Assembly: GCA_014728035.1 (NCBI GenBank)
Contig: WJMJ01000128.1
Span: forward strand, 1-64,000
Length of the DNA stretch: 64,000 nucleotides
Reading direction: 5' to 3'
Origin: Promethearchaeota archaeon
Lineage (GTDB): Archaea > Asgardarchaeota > Thorarchaeia > Thorarchaeales > Thorarchaeaceae
Position numbers and translations under genes: made by a program. Below the pieces are notes generated by a model. That model made no database searches. It was not told where the DNA came from and worked only from the letters and a program-made list of their open reading frames with translations. This document shows positions 6,113-11,577 of this stretch, one piece after another. The stretch's first letter is position 1, and each line of letters begins with the position of its first letter.

Positions 6113-7095
6113 GATTCAACACCTCTCAGTGCCGAAACATCTTCCAATGATAGAACCTGTCGGGGTTCGTATACGACTAGCCCTTGAGCTAATTTTCGAA
6201 GTAATGGAATAAAATGCAGGTATTCACTTCTATCGATGACTGTATTCAATGCAACCCAATCATCATCTGATAGCGGGGATATAGTAGGTTTCTTGAGACC
6301 CGGAAGTTGCTCCAGAAGCACCTCAAGGTTGGACTTTTCCACATTCACAAATATGTGTAAACGTTTTCGCCCATCTATGACACCACCTAAAAGAGTGGCA
6401 ATGTCAAGAACCTTCTCTCGCTTTTGAGGTTCTGATAGAACTGATGAATTGCATATTAGAACAGCACTAGACTCCATCAGTACTTCAATAACCTTCAGTC
6501 CGTTCTGACGAAGAGAAGTTCCAGTATCCATTACTTCGACGATAGCATCTGCCGCAATAGGTGGTTTTGCTTCCGTTGCTCCAAATGAGAGATATACAGC
6601 AACCTTGTCATTCTCACCTTTTCTCCACCAAGGTGTGATAATCAGAGGTTCTTGGTTTCCAAAGAGTTCGTGATATGCAGCATTATTCTGAATTGCACGT
6701 GATGCAAGATTGGGATATTCTGTGGAGATTCGAAGAGTCCTTCTGTCATTTGCGAATGTACGGATTAGGTCCGATAGTGAGCAAATTTCAGACATGCAAT
6801 TCTGAATTGCAACAACAATTCGTACCTTAGAATATTCAAGATCTAATAGGGTTTCAACTTTCACGCCAGTTTCAGCTATCCAGTCAGCACCAGTGATGCC
6901 CACATCTTGAATCCCTTCAGCAACGTAGATGGGAATCTCCTGTGGGCGTAACACTCTCAGTTCAATATGGTGATCATTAATGGATGGTTGGTAGGTACGA
7001 GAACTACCGGAAATAGAATATCCTGCACGACTCATAGCTTTGAGTGTGTCATTCATCAAGTGCCCATTTGGAATAGCAAGTCTTACCTGATCCAT
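6109..7095 (-). CDS. hisG: ATP phosphoribosyltransferase, long form with C-terminal regulatory domain
   Basis: RPQEIPIYVAEG..DVGITGAD, SFGATEAKP, DTGTSLRQNGL, PGLKKPTISPL. Confidence 0.96.
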   Translation of the reverse strand: MDQVRLAIPNGHLMNDTLKAMSRAGYSISGSSRTYQPSINDHHIELRVLRPQEIPIYVAEGIQDVGITGADWIAETGVKVETLLDLEYSKVRIVVAIQNCMSEICSLSDLIRTFANDRRTLRISTEYPNLASRAIQNNAAYHELFGNQEPLIITPWWRKGENDKVAVYLSFGATEAKPPIAADAIVEVMDTGTSLRQNGLKVIEVLMESSAVLICNSSVLSEPQKREKVLDIATLLGGVIDGRKRLHIFVNVEKSNLEVLLEQLPGLKKPTISPLSDDDWVALNTVIDRSEYLHFIPLLRKLAQGLVVYEPRQVLSLEDVSALRGVES

Positions 7096-7237
7096 AATTT
7101 TTCACCTAGAATTAGTTTGGTTGAATTCATTTCATTCAATGAAAGAAATCGCTGAACAGAGAGTCCACTAGAATACAAAATTAGAGAACTGAAAAACAGC
7201 GAAAACGGAGAAACCACTAGAAGATTGATTTCAAGTG

Positions 7238-7294
7238 TTATCGTAGCGATGTTGTTACAGATGAACACAATCGCCTGTGAACGCAAGACCTCAT
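7238..7294 (-). CDS. Putative uORF (MRSCVHRRLCSSVTTSLR) in the hisG 5' region
   Basis: TTTATA at 7332-7337, GGTGA SD at 7303-7307, ATG 7294, TAA 7238; one His codon. Confidence 0.3.
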   Translation of the reverse strand: MRSCVHRRLCSSVTTSLR

Positions 7295-7390
7295 TGTGTG
7301 TTTCACCAAGAGTCTGGCCCGATTGTGTCAATATAAACATTGCTGCACAAAAAAGAACATCGGGCCCTCGTCACCCCTCCTTTTGTCACA

Positions 7391-7450
7391 CTAAGCTACT
7401 TGGCACCGCCAAGTGGCATGACGTTGCCATCGCCAATGATGAGTGTCCAT
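7391..7450 (-). CDS. Putative His/Trp-rich leader peptide MDTHHWRWQRHATWRCQVA
   Basis: GAAGGT SD-like element ~8 nt upstream; 3 His and 3 Trp in 19 codons; overlapping hairpins; downstream TTCTTTTTT. Confidence 0.6.
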   Translation of the reverse strand: MDTHHWRWQRHATWRCQVA

Positions 7451-7499
7451 ATTTTCAAACCTTCTTTCTATTTCTATGAAAACGGTGTTCGACCTATTT

Positions 7500-8858
7500 T
7501 TAAGCGGCCTGTTCTCTTGCAATACTAATATCTCCTTTTGGTAAAGATGCCTGCTCTGACGAAAGACTACCCGACAGTAGACTGTCATATGCACCCATGT
7601 CAAAATATCCATGACCTGAGAGATTGAGGACGATTGTTTCTTCTCTGTTGTTTCTCTTTGCATAGAGAGCACGGTCTATTGCTGCCTTGATTGCATGTGC
7701 TGATTCTGGAGCAGGAATAATTCCTTCACACCGTGCAAAGAGAACCCCTGCATTTAGTACCTCAATTTGGTCGTAAGCAATTGGCTTGATACATCCCTCA
7801 TTCACTAGAGCACTGATGGTAGGAGCCATTCCATGGTATCTCAGCCCTCCTGCGTGGATTTTTGGTGGTGTGAAGTTTTGACCAAGCGAATACATTTTCA
7901 GTTTTGGAGTAAGTCCTGCTGTATCCCCAAAATCATACTTGTATTCACCCTTTGTCAAGGTTGGACATGCTGTTGGTTCAACTGCAATATAGTCCACGTC
8001 ATCAAATCTTGAATCAGCTAGGAATGGAAACACCATTCCACCGAAGTTGCTACCACCACCTACACATCCAATTAAGGTGTCCACCTTTTCATCAACACTC
8101 TCAAGTTGTGCTATGACCTCTTGCCCAATGACAGTCTGATGCAATAGGACGTGGTTCAACACCGAGCCAAGCGTATACTTTGTATCCTCACGACTTAGGG
8201 TATCCTCAAGTGCCTCACTGATTGCTATACCAAGGGTTCCAGGATGATCTGGATTATCCTTCCGGATTTGGCGGCCAAACTCAGTGATGTCAGAGGGGCT
8301 TGGTACAATAGTAGCTCCAAAGGAGCGCATCAAGGTCCCACGATATCGCTTCTGCTCGTAGCTGATCTTGACCATATACACCATTGCTTCAATATCAAAT
8401 ACTGAGCAGGCTAAGGCAACCGCACTGCCCCATTGCCCAGCGCCAGTTTCAGTAGCCAGACGTTCAGTACCTTCCTTGGCTGCATAATATGCCTGAGCTA
8501 AAGCAGTATTCAACTTGTGACTTCCAGTCGGTGACACATCCTCACGCTTGAAATAAATCCGCGCAGGGGTCTTCAACCGTTCCTCAAGTCTTACAGCTCT
8601 CTGAAGCGGACTTGGTCGCCCAAATCGTATCAGGGCATCTCTAATCTCTGTGGGAATTTTTACAAGCTTCTCTTGAGTTGCTTCCTGCTTAACACACTCT
8701 TGTGCGAAAATTGCAGTAAGCACATCAGGACTAGCTGGTTCACCAGTTCCAGGATCTATAGGAGGAGCCAAGGGCTCGGATAGATACGGTACTATGTTGA
8801 CATAGTTTTTTGGAACATCTTCTATATCCAATATAATTCGATTCTTGTTTACACTCAT
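7500..8858 (-). CDS. trpB: Tryptophan synthase beta chain, TrpB2 type (start revised to MSVNKNR)
   Basis: [16 protein letters not shown] (PLP lysine), [41 protein letters not shown]; N-terminal extension typical of TrpB2. Confidence 0.95.
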
Positions 8859-9020
8859 GGATGTTACGTCCAATTTTTTGTGACATACGCCCCTTCGATG
8901 AATCGTGTGATACTGCAATCTGAGTGAATGAAAGATGCAACTCGCGAATTGGTTGATAAAAAGAGCAACTCTGAATGCAGTAATCGAGTGTCTGTATCAA
9001 TCGGACAACTGGCGAACTAA

Positions 9021-9077
9021 CTAGACGGGTCCTCGTGGACCCCAATGCCATTGGTAATGATACACTCTCGACACCAT
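9021..9077 (-). CDS. Putative aromatic/His-rich leader peptide MVSRVYHYQWHWGPRGPV
   Basis: TATATATA at 9118-9125, GAGGTG SD at 9081-9086, ATG 9077 (or GTG 9074), TAG 9021; YHYQWHW cluster followed by a GGGTCC-ACGA-GGACCC hairpin. Confidence 0.65.
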   Translation of the reverse strand: MVSRVYHYQWHWGPRGPV

Positions 9078-9117
9078 TAACACCTCGAAAGGGCTGCGTT
9101 GTGCGTTTGAAGACCCC

Positions 9118-9125
9118 TATATATA
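9118..9125 (-). promoter_or_regulatory. TATA box for the leader-trpB2 transcript
   Basis: TATATATA ~32 nt upstream of the leader SD, consistent with a start site near 9095. Confidence 0.5.
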
Positions 9126-9255
9126 CGTTACGCATTATTGTACATCAATGTTCATTTTTGTACATTATTTCATTTTTCTGATTGTGTTGCAAAATTCAAA
9201 CCAATGATTTAAAGAACGAAAAGGATTATGAATCTCTAATTGACGAGATAACATA

Positions 9256-11577
9256 TTGGCGATAATAATGAGAAGAATGATTCCAGTAACTTTGTTGATG
9301 GTTTTTCTTTTAGCAAGCCCATTAGCAATCGCGAGTAGTGAACTTATCCGAAACACTACAACAGAAACAGAATCTATTGATACGGGGAGAAATACATCCC
9401 TCTCTACTATCAATAAAGCAACCGATGATTGGAAAATGAGTCATGTTGAAAACGGCAGGTTCGAGAATTGGAACAATCCGCATGATCCTGATTCATTCAA
9501 TGACTATCAATCCCGTGAGCATTTCACATGGTATGCAAGCAATCCATGGCCAGTCAGTGAGGGAAGCAAATCATTTGGGTTACAAGTAAAAGCTGTTGAT
9601 GAGTATCATCATTCTGAAGCACAGCTAAATCCAAACCCACAATCTCAATGGGACAACCCAACAAATCTCACGATTAGTTTCGATTATTATTTAGATTCCA
9701 TTGTGAACCCATCGAATGTCAATTTCTTCCATCTGGAGCTAAAAATGAAAGAGAACTTTGCTACAAAATACTTGCATTATTACATGAAGGGAGCAAGTAT
9801 CAGTTCGAATAGTTCGTACTACGCATATTTCAACTTGGATAGTCCACTAGACCAGTGGAATTCCTTCAATCGTAATATCACGGAGGATTTCTTTGATGTC
9901 TTTGGTGCATATCCATCAGCATTCACAACAATGTATTTCTATCTACAAACGGAAGAATCAGCTTATAGTCGAGTCTTTGTTGATGATTTCTATATGGTAA
10001 ATAATACTGTGAGAATTGGTGGAAGTGTGAATAATGGAAATTTCGAGGGTAGTGGAACATGGTATTCGACACAAGATTCGGATCCTGGAGATATATCTCA
10101 AACTACTGATAGACAAGAAGGGAATTGGGCTCTCAATATGACAACTCTATCCCATGGAAATAATAGTAATGCAGAATTTTCATTCGACCCAAACATTCGA
10201 ACAACCAGTCAAAATCAAGACCGTTTTGAGTTCCCGTGGAAGATAGATGACTGGCAGGTTCCTGATGAAGACAGTTATCTATCCATGCAAGTGGAAATGT
10301 CTAATAACACCCACGAGTTCCACATCTTCTATTGGTTCTGCTATGTGGGTACTGTCGCACCAGTACAATACGAGGGATACAACGAAATACTTGTAGACGA
10401 TTTCAATTCAACGGGTACATGGAACTATTTCAATCGCAGTATTTGGGAAGATGTAACTGCGCTGAATGTCACCACAGAGCTAGTGATTGAAGGTATAGAG
10501 TTTCACATGGAATGTAGAGAGCCTGGTAGCAGATTGGTATTTCTTACGGACAACATGAGCATAACAGCATCAGCTCTTAATGACCGGGATTACGAAGACC
10601 AGCTTGCTGTTGACACCCCAATACGTTCATGGGGTACAAACGGAATAGATGAAGATTCAAACCTACTTGTAACTGACTTTGCCTACTCTGGAAACAAGGC
10701 TGCGAATCTCACACTAACTGACAACTCGAACATATGGATGGACCAAGAACTCAAAGAAAGAACACTGAATTCAACAACTGAACTCTATCTAGATTTCAAT
10801 TGGTATTTGGATGATTTTTCAGCACTTGAGGATGACGAGATTCTAATCTACGTCAGCTTCTATGATTACAATATCTATTATGTTCTTGCAACAGGAAGAA
10901 GTTCGACATATGCAGGAGAGGGTGATGCATACATCATGTTACCAGAAGCAAACCAGACCGGTACTTGGATAAATACCCAGATTAATTTGTATCAAGACTT
11001 CTATGATACATATGAAGAAGCCCCAATATACATTGACTATATTGCAATAGGGGCAGACACGGATGCTGGAGGTAGACTTGAAATAATCTTTGATGATCTC
11101 TATATCTATGAAGGTTCTCCTCCTGTTATTAGCGATGTGAAACAAACTCCTCTGAGTCCAAACACAGAAGAGACTGTTGATGTCTATGCAGTAGTTCAAG
11201 ATCCAAGTCTTGATATGGTCTGGTTAGAATACAGAGTGGATGGTGGTACATGGTCAGAAGTCATAATGACTGAAACCGTATCTTCAAACTACACTGCGAC
11301 AATCCCAACTCAACTAGTAGACTCAGAAGTTGAATATCGGATTACCGCGAATGATACGTTTGGAAAGCTCTCAACATCTATTAACGGAACTGACTATTAC
11401 AACTATACAGTAGTCGAAACCGATGTGCCCTCGACTACCACAACAACTTCTACAACTACACCTCCAGATCCAATAATACTAGATCCTACAGCCATTATGT
11501 TAATTGGAGCACTATTAGCAATAGCTGTGATCGCGGTGTACTTTGTAGTTATTCGCCCAAAACAGACTAGCAGTTAG
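9256..11577 (+). CDS. Secreted, C-terminally anchored surface glycoprotein with repeated CBM-like beta domains
   Basis: Signal peptide; repeated NGxFE...W..FNRxIxxD units; Ig-like domain; Thr-rich linker; C-terminal TM; many NxS/T sequons. Confidence 0.75.
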   Translation: MAIIMRRMIPVTLLMVFLLASPLAIASSELIRNTTTETESIDTGRNTSLSTINKATDDWKMSHVENGRFENWNNPHDPDSFNDYQSREHFTWYASNPWPVSEGSKSFGLQVKAVDEYHHSEAQLNPNPQSQWDNPTNLTISFDYYLDSIVNPSNVNFFHLELKMKENFATKYLHYYMKGASISSNSSYYAYFNLDSPLDQWNSFNRNITEDFFDVFGAYPSAFTTMYFYLQTEESAYSRVFVDDFYMVNNTVRIGGSVNNGNFEGSGTWYSTQDSDPGDISQTTDRQEGNWALNMTTLSHGNNSNAEFSFDPNIRTTSQNQDRFEFPWKIDDWQVPDEDSYLSMQVEMSNNTHEFHIFYWFCYVGTVAPVQYEGYNEILVDDFNSTGTWNYFNRSIWEDVTALNVTTELVIEGIEFHMECREPGSRLVFLTDNMSITASALNDRDYEDQLAVDTPIRSWGTNGIDEDSNLLVTDFAYSGNKAANLTLTDNSNIWMDQELKERTLNSTTELYLDFNWYLDDFSALEDDEILIYVSFYDYNIYYVLATGRSSTYAGEGDAYIMLPEANQTGTWINTQINLYQDFYDTYEEAPIYIDYIAIGADTDAGGRLEIIFDDLYIYEGSPPVISDVKQTPLSPNTEETVDVYAVVQDPSLDMVWLEYRVDGGTWSEVIMTETVSSNYTATIPTQLVDSEVEYRITANDTFGKLSTSINGTDYYNYTVVETDVPSTTTTTSTTTPPDPIILDPTAIMLIGALLAIAVIAVYFVVIRPKQTSS

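Follow-up and report, generated by a model that had tools for sequence, protein, structure and literature searches.

The trpB2 gene of a Promethearchaeota archaeon (Thorarchaeaceae, an Asgard lineage; assembly GCA_014728035.1) is preceded on the minus strand by a leader that carries a short upstream open reading frame (uORF1) with tryptophan codons. This raises the question of how such a leader could sense tryptophan, and whether it would do so by choosing between terminator and antiterminator hairpins. The window, i.e. the whole stretch of DNA analysed, covers positions 1-64,000 of contig WJMJ01000128.1 (64,000 nt). Comparisons were made among 55 distinct leaders of 133-216 nt, and stop-codon and TGG statistics were also computed over 22 clusters sharing no 8-mers.

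Genomic context and distribution

The only TrpB-family gene detected in the genome was trpB2. Because neither TrpA nor IGPS was found when looked for in the genome, trpB2 is the sole Trp-forming step detected there, and the organism appears to make tryptophan solely from indole via this stand-alone enzyme.

7500-8858, minus strand: trpB2, a TrpB-like PLP enzyme (NF009057 match, 665 bits)

Most genera of the family have a GGAG-type Shine-Dalgarno (SD) sequence of trpB2's own, while trpB2 of the window's genus has no SD. The gene hisG follows trpB2 in the window's genus and one other genus only.

A covariance model of the leader matched 58 of 86 genomes of the family and none of 124 genomes of the phylum's other families, with one copy per genome and every time 5′ of trpB2; no further copies were found with it in the host's own genome. 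Two weak matches within the family (L162 and L163) were rejected as false, both lying within unrelated coding sequence. An Rfam scan of positions 7000-9600 at E <= 10 gave chance matches only, with no Trp_leader and no T-box, and a consensus promoter/terminator scan was uninformative since the host is an archaeon. The parts conserved in the leader are the TATA box, the SD, uORF1, the GGGTCC-ACGA-GGACCC hairpin and two long-range stems.

Promoter and TGTACA boxes

The original prediction described a Trp-related leader with a promoter, an SD (GAGGTG) and a uORF, in that order from a TATA box onward. All of these were recovered at their predicted positions and are conserved in relatives, with a Trp codon in 55/55 leaders.

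9139-9164, minus strand: three phased TGTACA-type boxes, TGTACA-N4-TGAACA-N4-TGTACA, a putative TrpY-type operator
9118-9125, minus strand: TATA box TATATATA

A TATA-like octamer lies at a fixed -72 from CAA in 50 of 54 leaders. From the usual archaeal TATA-to-TSS spacing, the transcription start is predicted at about 9095 ± 3, upstream of uORF1 as originally proposed. The box pattern at 9164-9139 is unique in the 4.3-Mb genome and has a phasing of 10 nt; a fourth, degenerate TGTACA-type box adjoins the TATA box, and relatives have GTAC cores at -111, -101 and -91 relative to CAA. The boxes resemble TrpY operators, the consensus of which is TGTACA, and form a putative operator. The genome contains a TrpY-family homologue on contig 153, which scores 153.7 bits against NF053754 (cut-off 180) and is unlinked to trpB2, and in another family of the phylum a TrpY-family gene (201 bits) is divergent from trpB2. 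The arrangement is like the TRP-box concept of TrpY repression of trp genes in Methanothermobacter (PMC6737238) in that phased TGTACA boxes stand directly upstream of the TATA box, and unlike it in that the homologue in the same genome is below the family cut-off and unlinked, and the operator is putative.

uORF1 and an invariant C_CAA_TGG site

9081-9086, minus strand: SD-like GAGGTG of uORF1, within or beside the 5′ arm of helix P1
9021-9077, minus strand: uORF1, 18 codons, MVSRVYHYQWHWGPRGPV and stop (ATG at 9077, TAG at 9023-9021)
9048-9054, minus strand: C_CAA_TGG, the Gln-Trp codons of uORF1, overlapping the ATG (9051-9049) of a second frame, ORF2; proposed one-tRNA -1 slip site

The start codon of uORF1 is ATG in 45 and GTG in 10 of the 55 leaders, an SD-like purine tract lies 3-10 nt upstream of it in relatives, and its frame is preserved across a clade that has a 2-nt indel. 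Its Trp is codon 8-9 in 46/55 leaders and its stop lies 27 nt past TGG in 38/55. Most uORF1s (42/55) have a single Trp codon rather than two or more adjacent regulatory ones; W-x-W occurs in 12, the window's own included. A tie between the His codons of uORF1 and a downstream his operon was considered and rejected, given that His is not conserved and hisG follows trpB2 in just two genera.

At the C_CAA_TGG site, C, C, A, T, G and G are each present in 55/55 leaders; one leader lacks the final A of CAA (54/55). The codon before CAA is GGC, TAC, TGC, CGC, AGC or CTC, so that its final C is kept in 55/55 though six amino acids are encoded. The site has an X_XAA arrangement, with C_CAA followed by UGG in 54/55 leaders. 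The canonical X_XXY_YYZ two-tRNA slip heptamer is absent at C_CAA_UGG, where tRNA-Trp would be unable to re-pair on AUG. Genus g14 has C_CAC_UGG at this site and CAU_UGG in its second copy, both of them poor slip sites. The ORF2 ATG is present in 54/55 leaders; in one genome both leaders have CTG in its place, and ORF2 is still open to trpB2.

Fold of the leader RNA

The conserved fold consists of nested helices, P1, P2, P3 and P4. RNAalifold on a MAFFT alignment recovered P3 alone, the variable parts being unalignable, so P1, P2 and P4 were instead tested by comparing cognate with non-cognate duplex pairing.

9085-9094, minus strand: P1 5′ arm GCCCTTTCGA, at the predicted mRNA 5′ end, with a discontinuous extension to 9071 (MFE fold and covariation)
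8889-8898, minus strand: P1 3′ arm TCGAAGGGGC, about 30-40 nt upstream of the trpB2 ATG, with an extension to 8908 (MFE fold and covariation)
9058-9070, minus strand: P2 5′ arm, uORF1 codons 3-7 (MFE fold and covariation)
8985-8999, minus strand: P2 3′ arm (MFE fold and covariation)
9006-9013, minus strand: P2b 3′ strand GCCAgTTG, pairing with CAATGGC at 9053-9047 (MFE fold)
9027-9042, minus strand: P3 hairpin GGGTCC-ACGA-GGACCC, beginning 5 nt past TGG (UA/CG/UG covariation at one pair)
8968-8982, minus strand: P4 5′ arm (MFE fold and covariation)
8911-8925, minus strand: P4 3′ arm (MFE fold and covariation)
8958-8972, minus strand: AGAG-TTG-CTCT followed by T5, a weak, unconserved hairpin at the place of a conserved pyrimidine-rich tract of relatives

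For P1, the duplex energy was -22.1 kcal/mol for cognate versus -16.6 kcal/mol for non-cognate arms (0/5000 permutations; t = -7.5), and for P2 covariation was likewise detected at 0/5000 permutations (t = -4.6). The pairing of the 5′ part of the uORF and the imperfect stem, both suggested previously, correspond to P2 (9070-9058 with 8999-8985) and P4 (8982-8968 with 8925-8911; t = -3.5) of the MFE fold, and in both the cognate arms pair better. P1 and P2 cover the SD and the start of uORF1. Both the Trp codon and the ATG of ORF2 are held in P2b, whose TGG:CCA pairs are retained in most relatives with weak covariation. The P3 hairpin, another feature of the original prediction, was found at 9042-9027 and covaries; its spacer after UGG has a mode of 5 nt (32/55) and its mean energy is -11.8 kcal/mol, a stable structure in the range of 5-9 nt downstream of the proposed slip site. 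The adjacent CCAAT-GGC-ATTGG does exist as an inverted repeat (9054-9042), but as a hairpin it is not conserved, being lost in most relatives. In the controls of the duplex tests, an alternative 1:3-type pairing between the uORF1 SD region and the P2 3′ arm gave no signal. Nor did the predicted folds systematically sequester the trpB2 SD, whose unpaired probability was 0.15-0.81.

A second, overlapping reading frame

8740-9051, minus strand: ORF2, the -1 frame of uORF1, 103 codons, starting at the ATG inside C_CAA_TGG

The original prediction had overlooked this overlapping -1 frame running to trpB2. Before the trpB2 start, the 55 distinct leaders contain 18 stops in the ORF2 frame, nearly all of them its own terminal stop, versus 186 in each other frame; in the variable part of the 22 clusters there are 0 stops in the ORF2 frame versus 48.7 and 61.1 (22:0, p = 2e-7). 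ORF2 is open to its terminal stop in 55/55 leaders, and in 53/55 this stop lies <=17 nt from the trpB2 start or past it. Whatever the leader length or relative frame, the end of ORF2 falls at -11 to +20 nt relative to the start of trpB2 in 48/55 leaders, the commonest stop position being +4 (15 leaders), an ATGA/TTGA overlap with the start. By its sequence, this geometry of most genera is suggestive of termination-reinitiation coupling; in the window's genus ORF2 overlaps trpB2 by 119 nt (stop at +119). In the leader L030, whose trpB2 is broken, uORF1 has been cut short and the ORF2 stop comes 79 nt too soon.

ORF2 is also depleted of Trp codons about 3- to 4-fold. Among 37 representatives TGG occurs 8 times in its frame versus 32 and 35 in the others, and by cluster 7.3 versus 21.3 and 24.1 (sign test 17:3, p = 0.0013), whereas the Cys and NGG controls were flat. 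Such depletion fits, on sequence grounds, an ORF that would need to be translated during Trp shortage. A genuine small protein was rejected as an explanation of ORF2: its product matched no Pfam family, and only its first ~14 residues are conserved, coinciding with the RNA core.

No SD was found for ORF2. The motif GAGYGTG was rejected in this role, since at 11-13 nt from the ATG it is too distant compared with other starts in these genomes; it is possibly an internal-SD stimulator. Because ORF2 lacks an SD, its ATG is paired in P2b, and a -12 kcal/mol hairpin begins 7 nt downstream, the surroundings of this ATG are, as modelled, poor for fresh initiation.

A proposed frame switch and its alternatives

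The leader is most likely a Trp sensor read by the ribosome via a change of reading frame, rather than a terminator/antiterminator switch. We tentatively propose, at somewhat less than even confidence, that a ribosome starved at UGG enters ORF2 by a slip or by restart on AUG, melts the leader fold and carries translation on to trpB2. Transcription would begin ~25 nt past the TATA box from a promoter that is probably repressed, through its TGTACA boxes, by a TrpY-like protein, and a ribosome would load at the uORF1 SD during leader synthesis. With charged tRNA-Trp plentiful, CAA-UGG would be read and translation would terminate at the UAG 27 nt on; the leader would then adopt the nested P1/P2/P3/P4 fold, with the SD and start of uORF1 buried and CAAUGG paired. 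With Trp-tRNA scarce, the ribosome would pause with its P site on CAA and its A site vacant over UGG, and could pass into the -1 frame in one of two ways: peptidyl-tRNA-Gln might shift its pairing from CAA back onto C-CA, a one-tRNA "hungry" slip, or the ribosome might restart on the overlapping AUG. Trp-poor ORF2 would be read through P3, P2, P4 and the P1 3′ arm, so that the leader would stay unfolded, and in most genera the ribosome would terminate on the trpB2 start codon and thereby couple trpB2 translation. ORF2 translation may also guard the transcript against premature termination. In the window's genus the ORF2 stop lies 119 nt within trpB2, which there lacks an SD, so that termination-reinitiation cannot be the output.

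A more specific version, in which a programmed hungry-codon -1 slip on C_CAA is the amino-acid sensor that moves ribosomes from the dead-end uORF1 into a Trp-free frame leading to trpB2, is possible, if somewhat doubtful. Hungry -1 slippage is documented at G_GAA, where a missing A-site tRNA leads to a shift to GGA; it is described as slow and does not require a downstream hairpin (PMC6771820), and hungry slippage alone therefore leaves the conservation of P3 unexplained. Against the slip, post-slip tRNA-Gln on CCA would have a central C:U mismatch. As CAA followed by UGG automatically makes AUG, frameshift and AUG restart are inseparable by sequence.

ORF2 might instead be initiated afresh at its own AUG, by re-initiation after uORF1 terminates 27 nt further on or by a new subunit once uORF1 ribosomes melt P2/P2b/P3, and couple to trpB2, in which case the uORF1 Trp codon would be a by-product of AUG-G and P2b pairing, and Trp control would reside in the TrpY-type promoter only. 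The ATG of 54/55 leaders, the pairing of UGG with the downstream CCA, and the precedent of termination-reinitiation in archaea (PMC6728339) are in keeping with this, and TGG avoidance would also suit an always-needed ORF; yet a Trp codon on the ORF2 start would block ORF2 when Trp is short, and this codon is invariant while ORF2 avoids Trp. As fresh initiation also gives no role to the invariant C ahead of CAA, would have to proceed without an SD and with a stable hairpin 7 nt past the AUG, and does not account for the two ATG-less leaders that keep ORF2 open, we regard it as unlikely. There is a smaller chance still that ORF2 ribosomes act by occlusion, as in rtpLP of Bacillus subtilis: when Trp is replete they would cover or run over the ribosome-binding site (RBS) of trpB2 and keep the gene off, while a starved ribosome stalled at UGG would cover the ORF2 AUG, silence ORF2 and let trpB2 start from its own SD. 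ORF2 indeed extends every time to the trpB2 SD or beyond, in the window's genus to 119 nt past the start, and the GGAG-type SD of most genera is largely unpaired in the folds. The 3- to 4-fold Trp depletion would, however, be purposeless in a frame read only in plentiful Trp, overlaps of the ATGA/TTGA kind are classically associated with positive coupling, and the poor context of the ORF2 AUG is ill-matched to the strong initiation that occlusion requires.

It is quite improbable that sensing is done by the folded three-helix leader itself, with a conserved junction of CCAAUGG, GUYUAG and NCCA as a pocket for a protein, tRNA-Trp or small ligand and the ORFs as secondary features. Its covarying helices do enclose invariant unpaired bases, and UGG and NCCA are reminiscent of T-box contacts; but an ORF2 free of stops, positioned on the trpB2 start and depleted of Trp codons bears the signatures of translation, the uORF1 start, SD and frame are preserved through indels, and no Rfam family matches. 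Classical transcription attenuation, the mechanism of the original prediction, in which ribosome position picks between mutually exclusive hairpins and ample Trp lets transcription end at the T-run near 8958, appears very improbable. In its favour are a pyrimidine-rich tract conserved ~75-85 nt past CAATGG, runs of T5 or longer in several genera, and leader ORFs rich in Trp followed by T-runs in other Asgard lineages. However, most relatives have CTTCTTCTC-like tracts in place of T-runs >=5, covariation was seen in the nested helices only, with no covarying alternative pairing detected, and masking the nucleotides under a ribosome placed on the Trp codons or on the stop left P1, P4 and the accessibility of the trpB2 RBS unchanged. 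The small AGAG hairpin does have its sequence and T-run at 8972-8958, but it forms at p <= 0.26 in every fold tested, is not conserved, and rises rather than falls upon a Trp stall. Under the refuting condition set in the original prediction itself, the mechanism fails. Attenuation also leaves ORF2 unexplained and has no Rfam Trp_leader match on its side.

Comparison with known systems and implications

The proposed frame switch shares features with several known systems. In ermCL, a ketolide-induced frameshift sends a share of the ribosomes into the spacer and unfolds the structure hiding ermC, which can then be expressed (PMC5009743). The present leader likewise has a short ORF upstream of the regulated gene, with a proposed frame change and reading of the spacer that would unfold the mRNA; the trigger of ermCL is an antibiotic on a bacterial ribosome, whereas here it would be a vacant A site over a Trp codon, the proposed new frame is long, conserved, Trp-poor and ends on the gene start, and the host is archaeal. 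One-tRNA hungry -1 frameshifting (dnaX under starvation, the HIV-1 FFR route; PMC6771820) resembles the proposed step in that the P-site tRNA moves back one base while the A site awaits a scarce aminoacyl-tRNA, and X_XAA matches G_GAA; those frameshifts are errors, suppressor effects or viral set-points, and re-pairing here would be centrally mismatched. As with E. coli trpL (Rfam RF00513), a gene for Trp synthesis is preceded by a structured leader containing a short ORF that has an SD and a Trp codon, and the ribosome would be the sensor, but here there is one invariant Trp codon, no conserved terminator/antiterminator pair, no Rfam match and a second overlapping ORF, and the host belongs to the Archaea. 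Neither do the helices correspond to those of the T-box riboswitch, for which Rfam gave no match. In the rtpLP-rtpA (anti-TRAP) system, completing the leader peptide reportedly blocks the SD; both leaders have a Trp-codon ORF and would set translation by ribosome position relative to the next RBS, while the scarcity of Trp codons in ORF2 speaks for a long frame that is translated during starvation. As in the termination-reinitiation coupling shown in archaea (PMC6728339), 48/55 leaders have the upstream stop on or right beside the downstream start (ATGA, TTGA, 0-20 nt), although the upstream ORF here is a non-conserved leader frame instead of a protein gene and the window's own stop lies 119 nt inside trpB2.

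Our literature search found amino-acid-sensing, ribosome-read leader peptides reported from bacteria only, with no archaeal report, and no published natural example of Trp-shortage sensing by a frame switch; of productive frameshifting specific to starvation it has been stated that "no examples are known" (PMC5009743). The leader provides a clearly delimited, family-wide example from the Asgard archaea, the prokaryotes most closely related to eukaryotes, and its two overlapping frames, nested fold and gene coupling make up an architecture unlike the bacterial terminator/antiterminator scheme. At ~250 nt, the system is small and amenable to direct testing. If true, the frame switch would answer whether hungry-codon frameshifting has a productive use; in its version as a programmed hungry-codon slip, it would represent the first natural productive starvation-induced frameshift and, for Archaea, the first description of an amino-acid attenuator mediated by the ribosome.

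Two overlapping frames in the trpB2 leader

From its pattern of conservation, the element upstream of trpB2 is a family-wide, two-frame tryptophan (Trp) leader that is probably translated. The original prediction had described a TATA box, a GAGGTG tract and a short upstream ORF (uORF1), all of which are present at the positions it had assigned; the overlapping -1 frame (ORF2) was missed.

Features of the trpB2 leader and of the trpB2-hisG spacer in the window
9125-9118, minus strand: TATA box
9086-9081, minus strand: GAGGTG tract
9077-9021, minus strand: uORF1, encoding MVSRVYHYQWHWGPRGPV, then stop
9070-9058 with 8999-8985, minus strand: helix P2 (minimum-energy fold, cognate-arm test)
9051-8740, minus strand: ORF2, 103 codons in the window's genus, ATG at 9051-9049 within CA-ATG-G, -1 frame of uORF1
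8982-8968 with 8925-8911, minus strand: helix P4 (minimum-energy fold, window-pair scan)
8858-7500, minus strand: trpB2, TrpB-like enzyme (NF009057, 665 bits)
7450-7391, minus strand: small ORF of the trpB2-hisG spacer, encoding MDTHHWRWQRHATWRCQVA, then stop, with three His and three Trp; only in the window's genus
7340-7083, minus strand: long spacer ORF before hisG, 85 codons, ending 13 nt inside hisG

Across 55 distinct leaders, uORF1 starts with ATG in 45 and GTG in 10, an SD-like tract is kept, and the reading frame leading to the Trp codon survives even a 2-nt deletion in one clade, where the start has shifted in compensation. The heptamer C_CAA_TGG is invariant in 55/55 apart from one A-to-C change, and the codon preceding CAA may be Gly, Tyr, Cys, Arg, Ser or Leu, with C as its third base in every case. 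The uORF1 stop lies 27 nt past TGG in 38/55 leaders; the His codons of uORF1 are not conserved across the set.

ORF2 is open in all 55 leaders over the otherwise unconserved 130-215 nt to trpB2. Before the trpB2 start there are 18 stops in its frame, nearly all its own terminal stop, versus 186 in each other frame; counted over 22 clusters without any common 8-mer in the variable region, the numbers are 0 versus 48.7 and 61.1 (22:0, p = 2e-7). The ORF2 stop falls at -11 to +20 nt relative to the trpB2 start in 48/55 leaders, most commonly at +4 (ATGA or TTGA overlap), independent of leader length and of how the two ORFs are phased; the shortest example, a 133-nt leader, still ends ORF2 at +4. 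The window's genus, with ORF2 ending 119 nt inside trpB2, is an exception. Since the peptide matches no Pfam family and is conserved over its first ~14 residues only, coincident with the RNA core, selection appears to act on translation of the ORF2 frame, not on its product.

Invariant in uORF1, TGG is avoided in ORF2: across 37 representatives the ORF2 frame holds 8 and the other two 32 and 35, or by cluster 7.3 versus 21.3 and 24.1 (sign test 17:3, p = 0.0013), and TGT/TGC and NGG controls, by the same cluster count, have no frame bias. A frame cleared of Trp codons is one that must be read when Trp is scarce, in keeping with an output switched ON by starvation.

Three cases depart from the common pattern. 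Contrary to the general avoidance, ORF2 in the genus of L003 (genome G015) has the C-terminus K-W-Y-H-W-W-stop, 40 nt short of trpB2; this form may be a hybrid with the Trp-rich leader type. Contig 6 of genome G014 carries two trpB2 copies 11 kb apart (L015, L167), each preceded by a leader with CTG in place of the ORF2 ATG and ORF2 nonetheless open to trpB2; the second copy has lost its first Trp codon (CAC TGT CAT TGG) and kept the later one. At L030 (genome G016, contig 167), the only locus with a broken trpB2 (internal stop; 41% identity across its first third), the uORF1 ATG has become ACG, with an early stop after Gln-Trp-Glu and ORF2 79 nt short, so that gene and leader appear to decay together.

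A nested leader fold

Folding of 9100-8850 shows a modest excess of stability over shuffles (z = -2.35), and the two long-range pairings of the original prediction are in the minimum-energy fold as P2 and P4. When duplex energies of cognate arms were compared with those of arms from other lineages, P1 reached -22.1 versus -16.6 kcal/mol and P2 -17.1 versus -14.9 kcal/mol, with 0/5000 permutations as good for either and no signal in three control pairings. The mRNA is predicted to begin with the 5′ arm of P1, which contains or adjoins the uORF1 SD; the 3′ arm of P1 ends 15-25 nt upstream of the trpB2 start. The first uORF1 codons form the 5′ arm of P2, and in P2b UGG/AUG is paired with a downstream CCA. 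Both abutting inverted repeats exist in the window; the CCAAT-GGC-ATTGG hairpin is not conserved, and the conserved one is P3, a GC-rich hairpin beginning 5 nt after TGG with compensatory changes.

The mutually exclusive, ribosome-dependent structures originally proposed found no counterpart. A blind scan of 250 window pairs recovered only P1 (t = -7.5), P2 (-4.6) and P4 (-3.5), all nested, with no second partner for any window. With a ribosome footprint masked over the stop or over either of the Trp codons, P2 and P3 were lost, and neither P1 nor P4 nor the accessibility of the trpB2 ribosome-binding site changed. The AGAG-TTG-CTCT hairpin with its T5 run is present as placed, is not conserved, and had p <= 0.26 in all folds tested. 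Together, these results leave a terminator/antiterminator reading unsupported: the original observation was largely real, and its mechanism is not supported.

A possible starvation-triggered frame switch

ORF2 begins exactly at the waiting position of a Trp-starved uORF1 ribosome. The most likely reading, at slightly less than an even chance, is that the leader is a starvation-triggered frame switch in which this ribosome enters ORF2 by slip or restart. Fresh initiation at ORF2 is unlikely because there is no SD, the start codon is paired and a stable hairpin lies 7 nt downstream, so that the most economical reading would have the ribosome stalled at UGG itself enter ORF2. It could do so by slipping back one base on C_CAA while the A site is empty; such one-tRNA -1 slippage is established biochemically, one case being G_GAA to GGA, with the same X_XAA geometry (PMC6771820). 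Slippage would account for the invariance of the C that precedes CAA, which is otherwise puzzling. The ribosome could also restart on the overlapping AUG, for example after loss of a short peptidyl-tRNA; this would follow the same logic, and the two routes are inseparable by sequence. The avoidance of Trp codons in ORF2 argues against models that have it read only in Trp plenty.

The conserved frames and helices are observed; from them we infer the later steps. A ribosome in ORF2 would melt P3, P2, P4 and the 3′ arm of P1 and would terminate on the trpB2 start, leading to coupled reinitiation, and termination-reinitiation is known in archaea (PMC6728339). Since the uORF1 SD would stay free while ORF2 is read, the ON state could be self-sustaining; if ORF2 is not translated, the fold would close over the uORF1 initiation region.

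The frame switch has several weak points. Slippage would leave a central mismatch after re-pairing, and hungry slippage has been reported without a hairpin requirement (PMC6771820), so that it would not by itself explain the conserved P3. Genus g14 has C_CAC_UGG or CAU_UGG and no AUG, with ORF2 still open, and in the window's genus the ORF2 stop is at +119 and trpB2 has no SD. The trpB2 SD is not consistently hidden in predicted folds, and an extra transcript-level effect may be needed, such as a translating ribosome protecting the leader from termination or decay.

By analogy, the closest parallel is the ketolide-induced frameshift in ermCL, in which ribosomes that have changed frame read on into the spacer and open the structure that hides ermC; the same paper states that of productive hungry-codon frameshifting there are 'no examples known' (PMC5009743). 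Bacterial trpL attenuators share a Trp-codon leader ORF within a structured leader but have alternative hairpins and an Rfam match, neither of which was found here. No leader-ORF sensor from archaea, Asgard lineages included, turned up in our literature searches.

Distribution and promoter

The same leader precedes trpB2 in all Thorarchaeota loci examined. A covariance model of the 80-nt leader core matched once in the host genome, in 58/86 genomes of the family (15/16 genera) and in 0/124 genomes of 26 other families of the phylum. Several family genomes without the element (G004, G005, G011, G019, G022) also have no trpB2. The only matches away from trpB2, two weak ones inside coding sequence, were rejected as false positives.

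Counted from the C of CAA, three GTAC-core boxes (-111, -101, -91) and a TATA box at -72 are kept across the 55 leaders, and the triple-box pattern occurs once in the host genome. TGTACA is the TRP-box consensus of TrpY. In another family of the phylum, trpB2 and a TrpY-family gene (201 bits) are divergently oriented. The host has a TrpY-like HTH+ACT gene (contig 153:19830-20360; L166:1495-2016, minus strand; 153.7 bits to NF053754, below the cut-off of 180), unlinked to trpB2 and with no TGTACA boxes in its upstream region. The TGTACA boxes of the leader fit the TRP-box concept for TrpY (PMC6737238).

Other leader ORFs and tryptophan supply

Downstream of trpB2, a 400-nt spacer precedes hisG-D-C-B-H-A-F-I. 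A comparison of hisG leaders, covering 7083-7500 (minus strand) of the window and the region after trpB2 in L002 and L006, revealed a 110-codon leader ORF in L006, from another genus, ending 8 nt inside hisG, and a shared block of ~45 nt, AATGAGGTCTTGC...GGCGATTGTGTTCATCTG. Coupling of biosynthetic genes to long leader ORFs may be more widespread among these archaea. In Odinarchaeota (L021, L022, L072), the trpB2 gene is preceded at ~70-215 nt by a leader ORF of 45-46 codons with the C-terminus W-A-W-R-W-L-x-W-P-stop, in which four Trp codons are invariant; a short hairpin spans the stop codon, and a T6-T7 run follows ~25 nt before the trpB2 SD, a design nearer to the classical Trp-rich leader peptide than that of Thorarchaeota. 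L020, from family f4 of the same phylum, has an ORF ending G-W-P-W-R-G-P-W-Q-stop (-319 to -118 before trpB2); between it and trpB2 stand GCCTG-TTTTT-CAGGC and an extended T-rich stretch, which together resemble a terminator hairpin.

Among public sequences, the closest relative is a MAG of Candidatus Thorarchaeota, at 96% identity. With trpB2 as the only TrpB-family gene in the host genome (98% complete), no TrpA (PF00290) found there, and one sub-threshold IGPS-like match with nothing above threshold, trpB2 is by inference the sole detected Trp-forming step, which suggests that the host either makes Trp, probably from scavenged indole, or is a Trp auxotroph.
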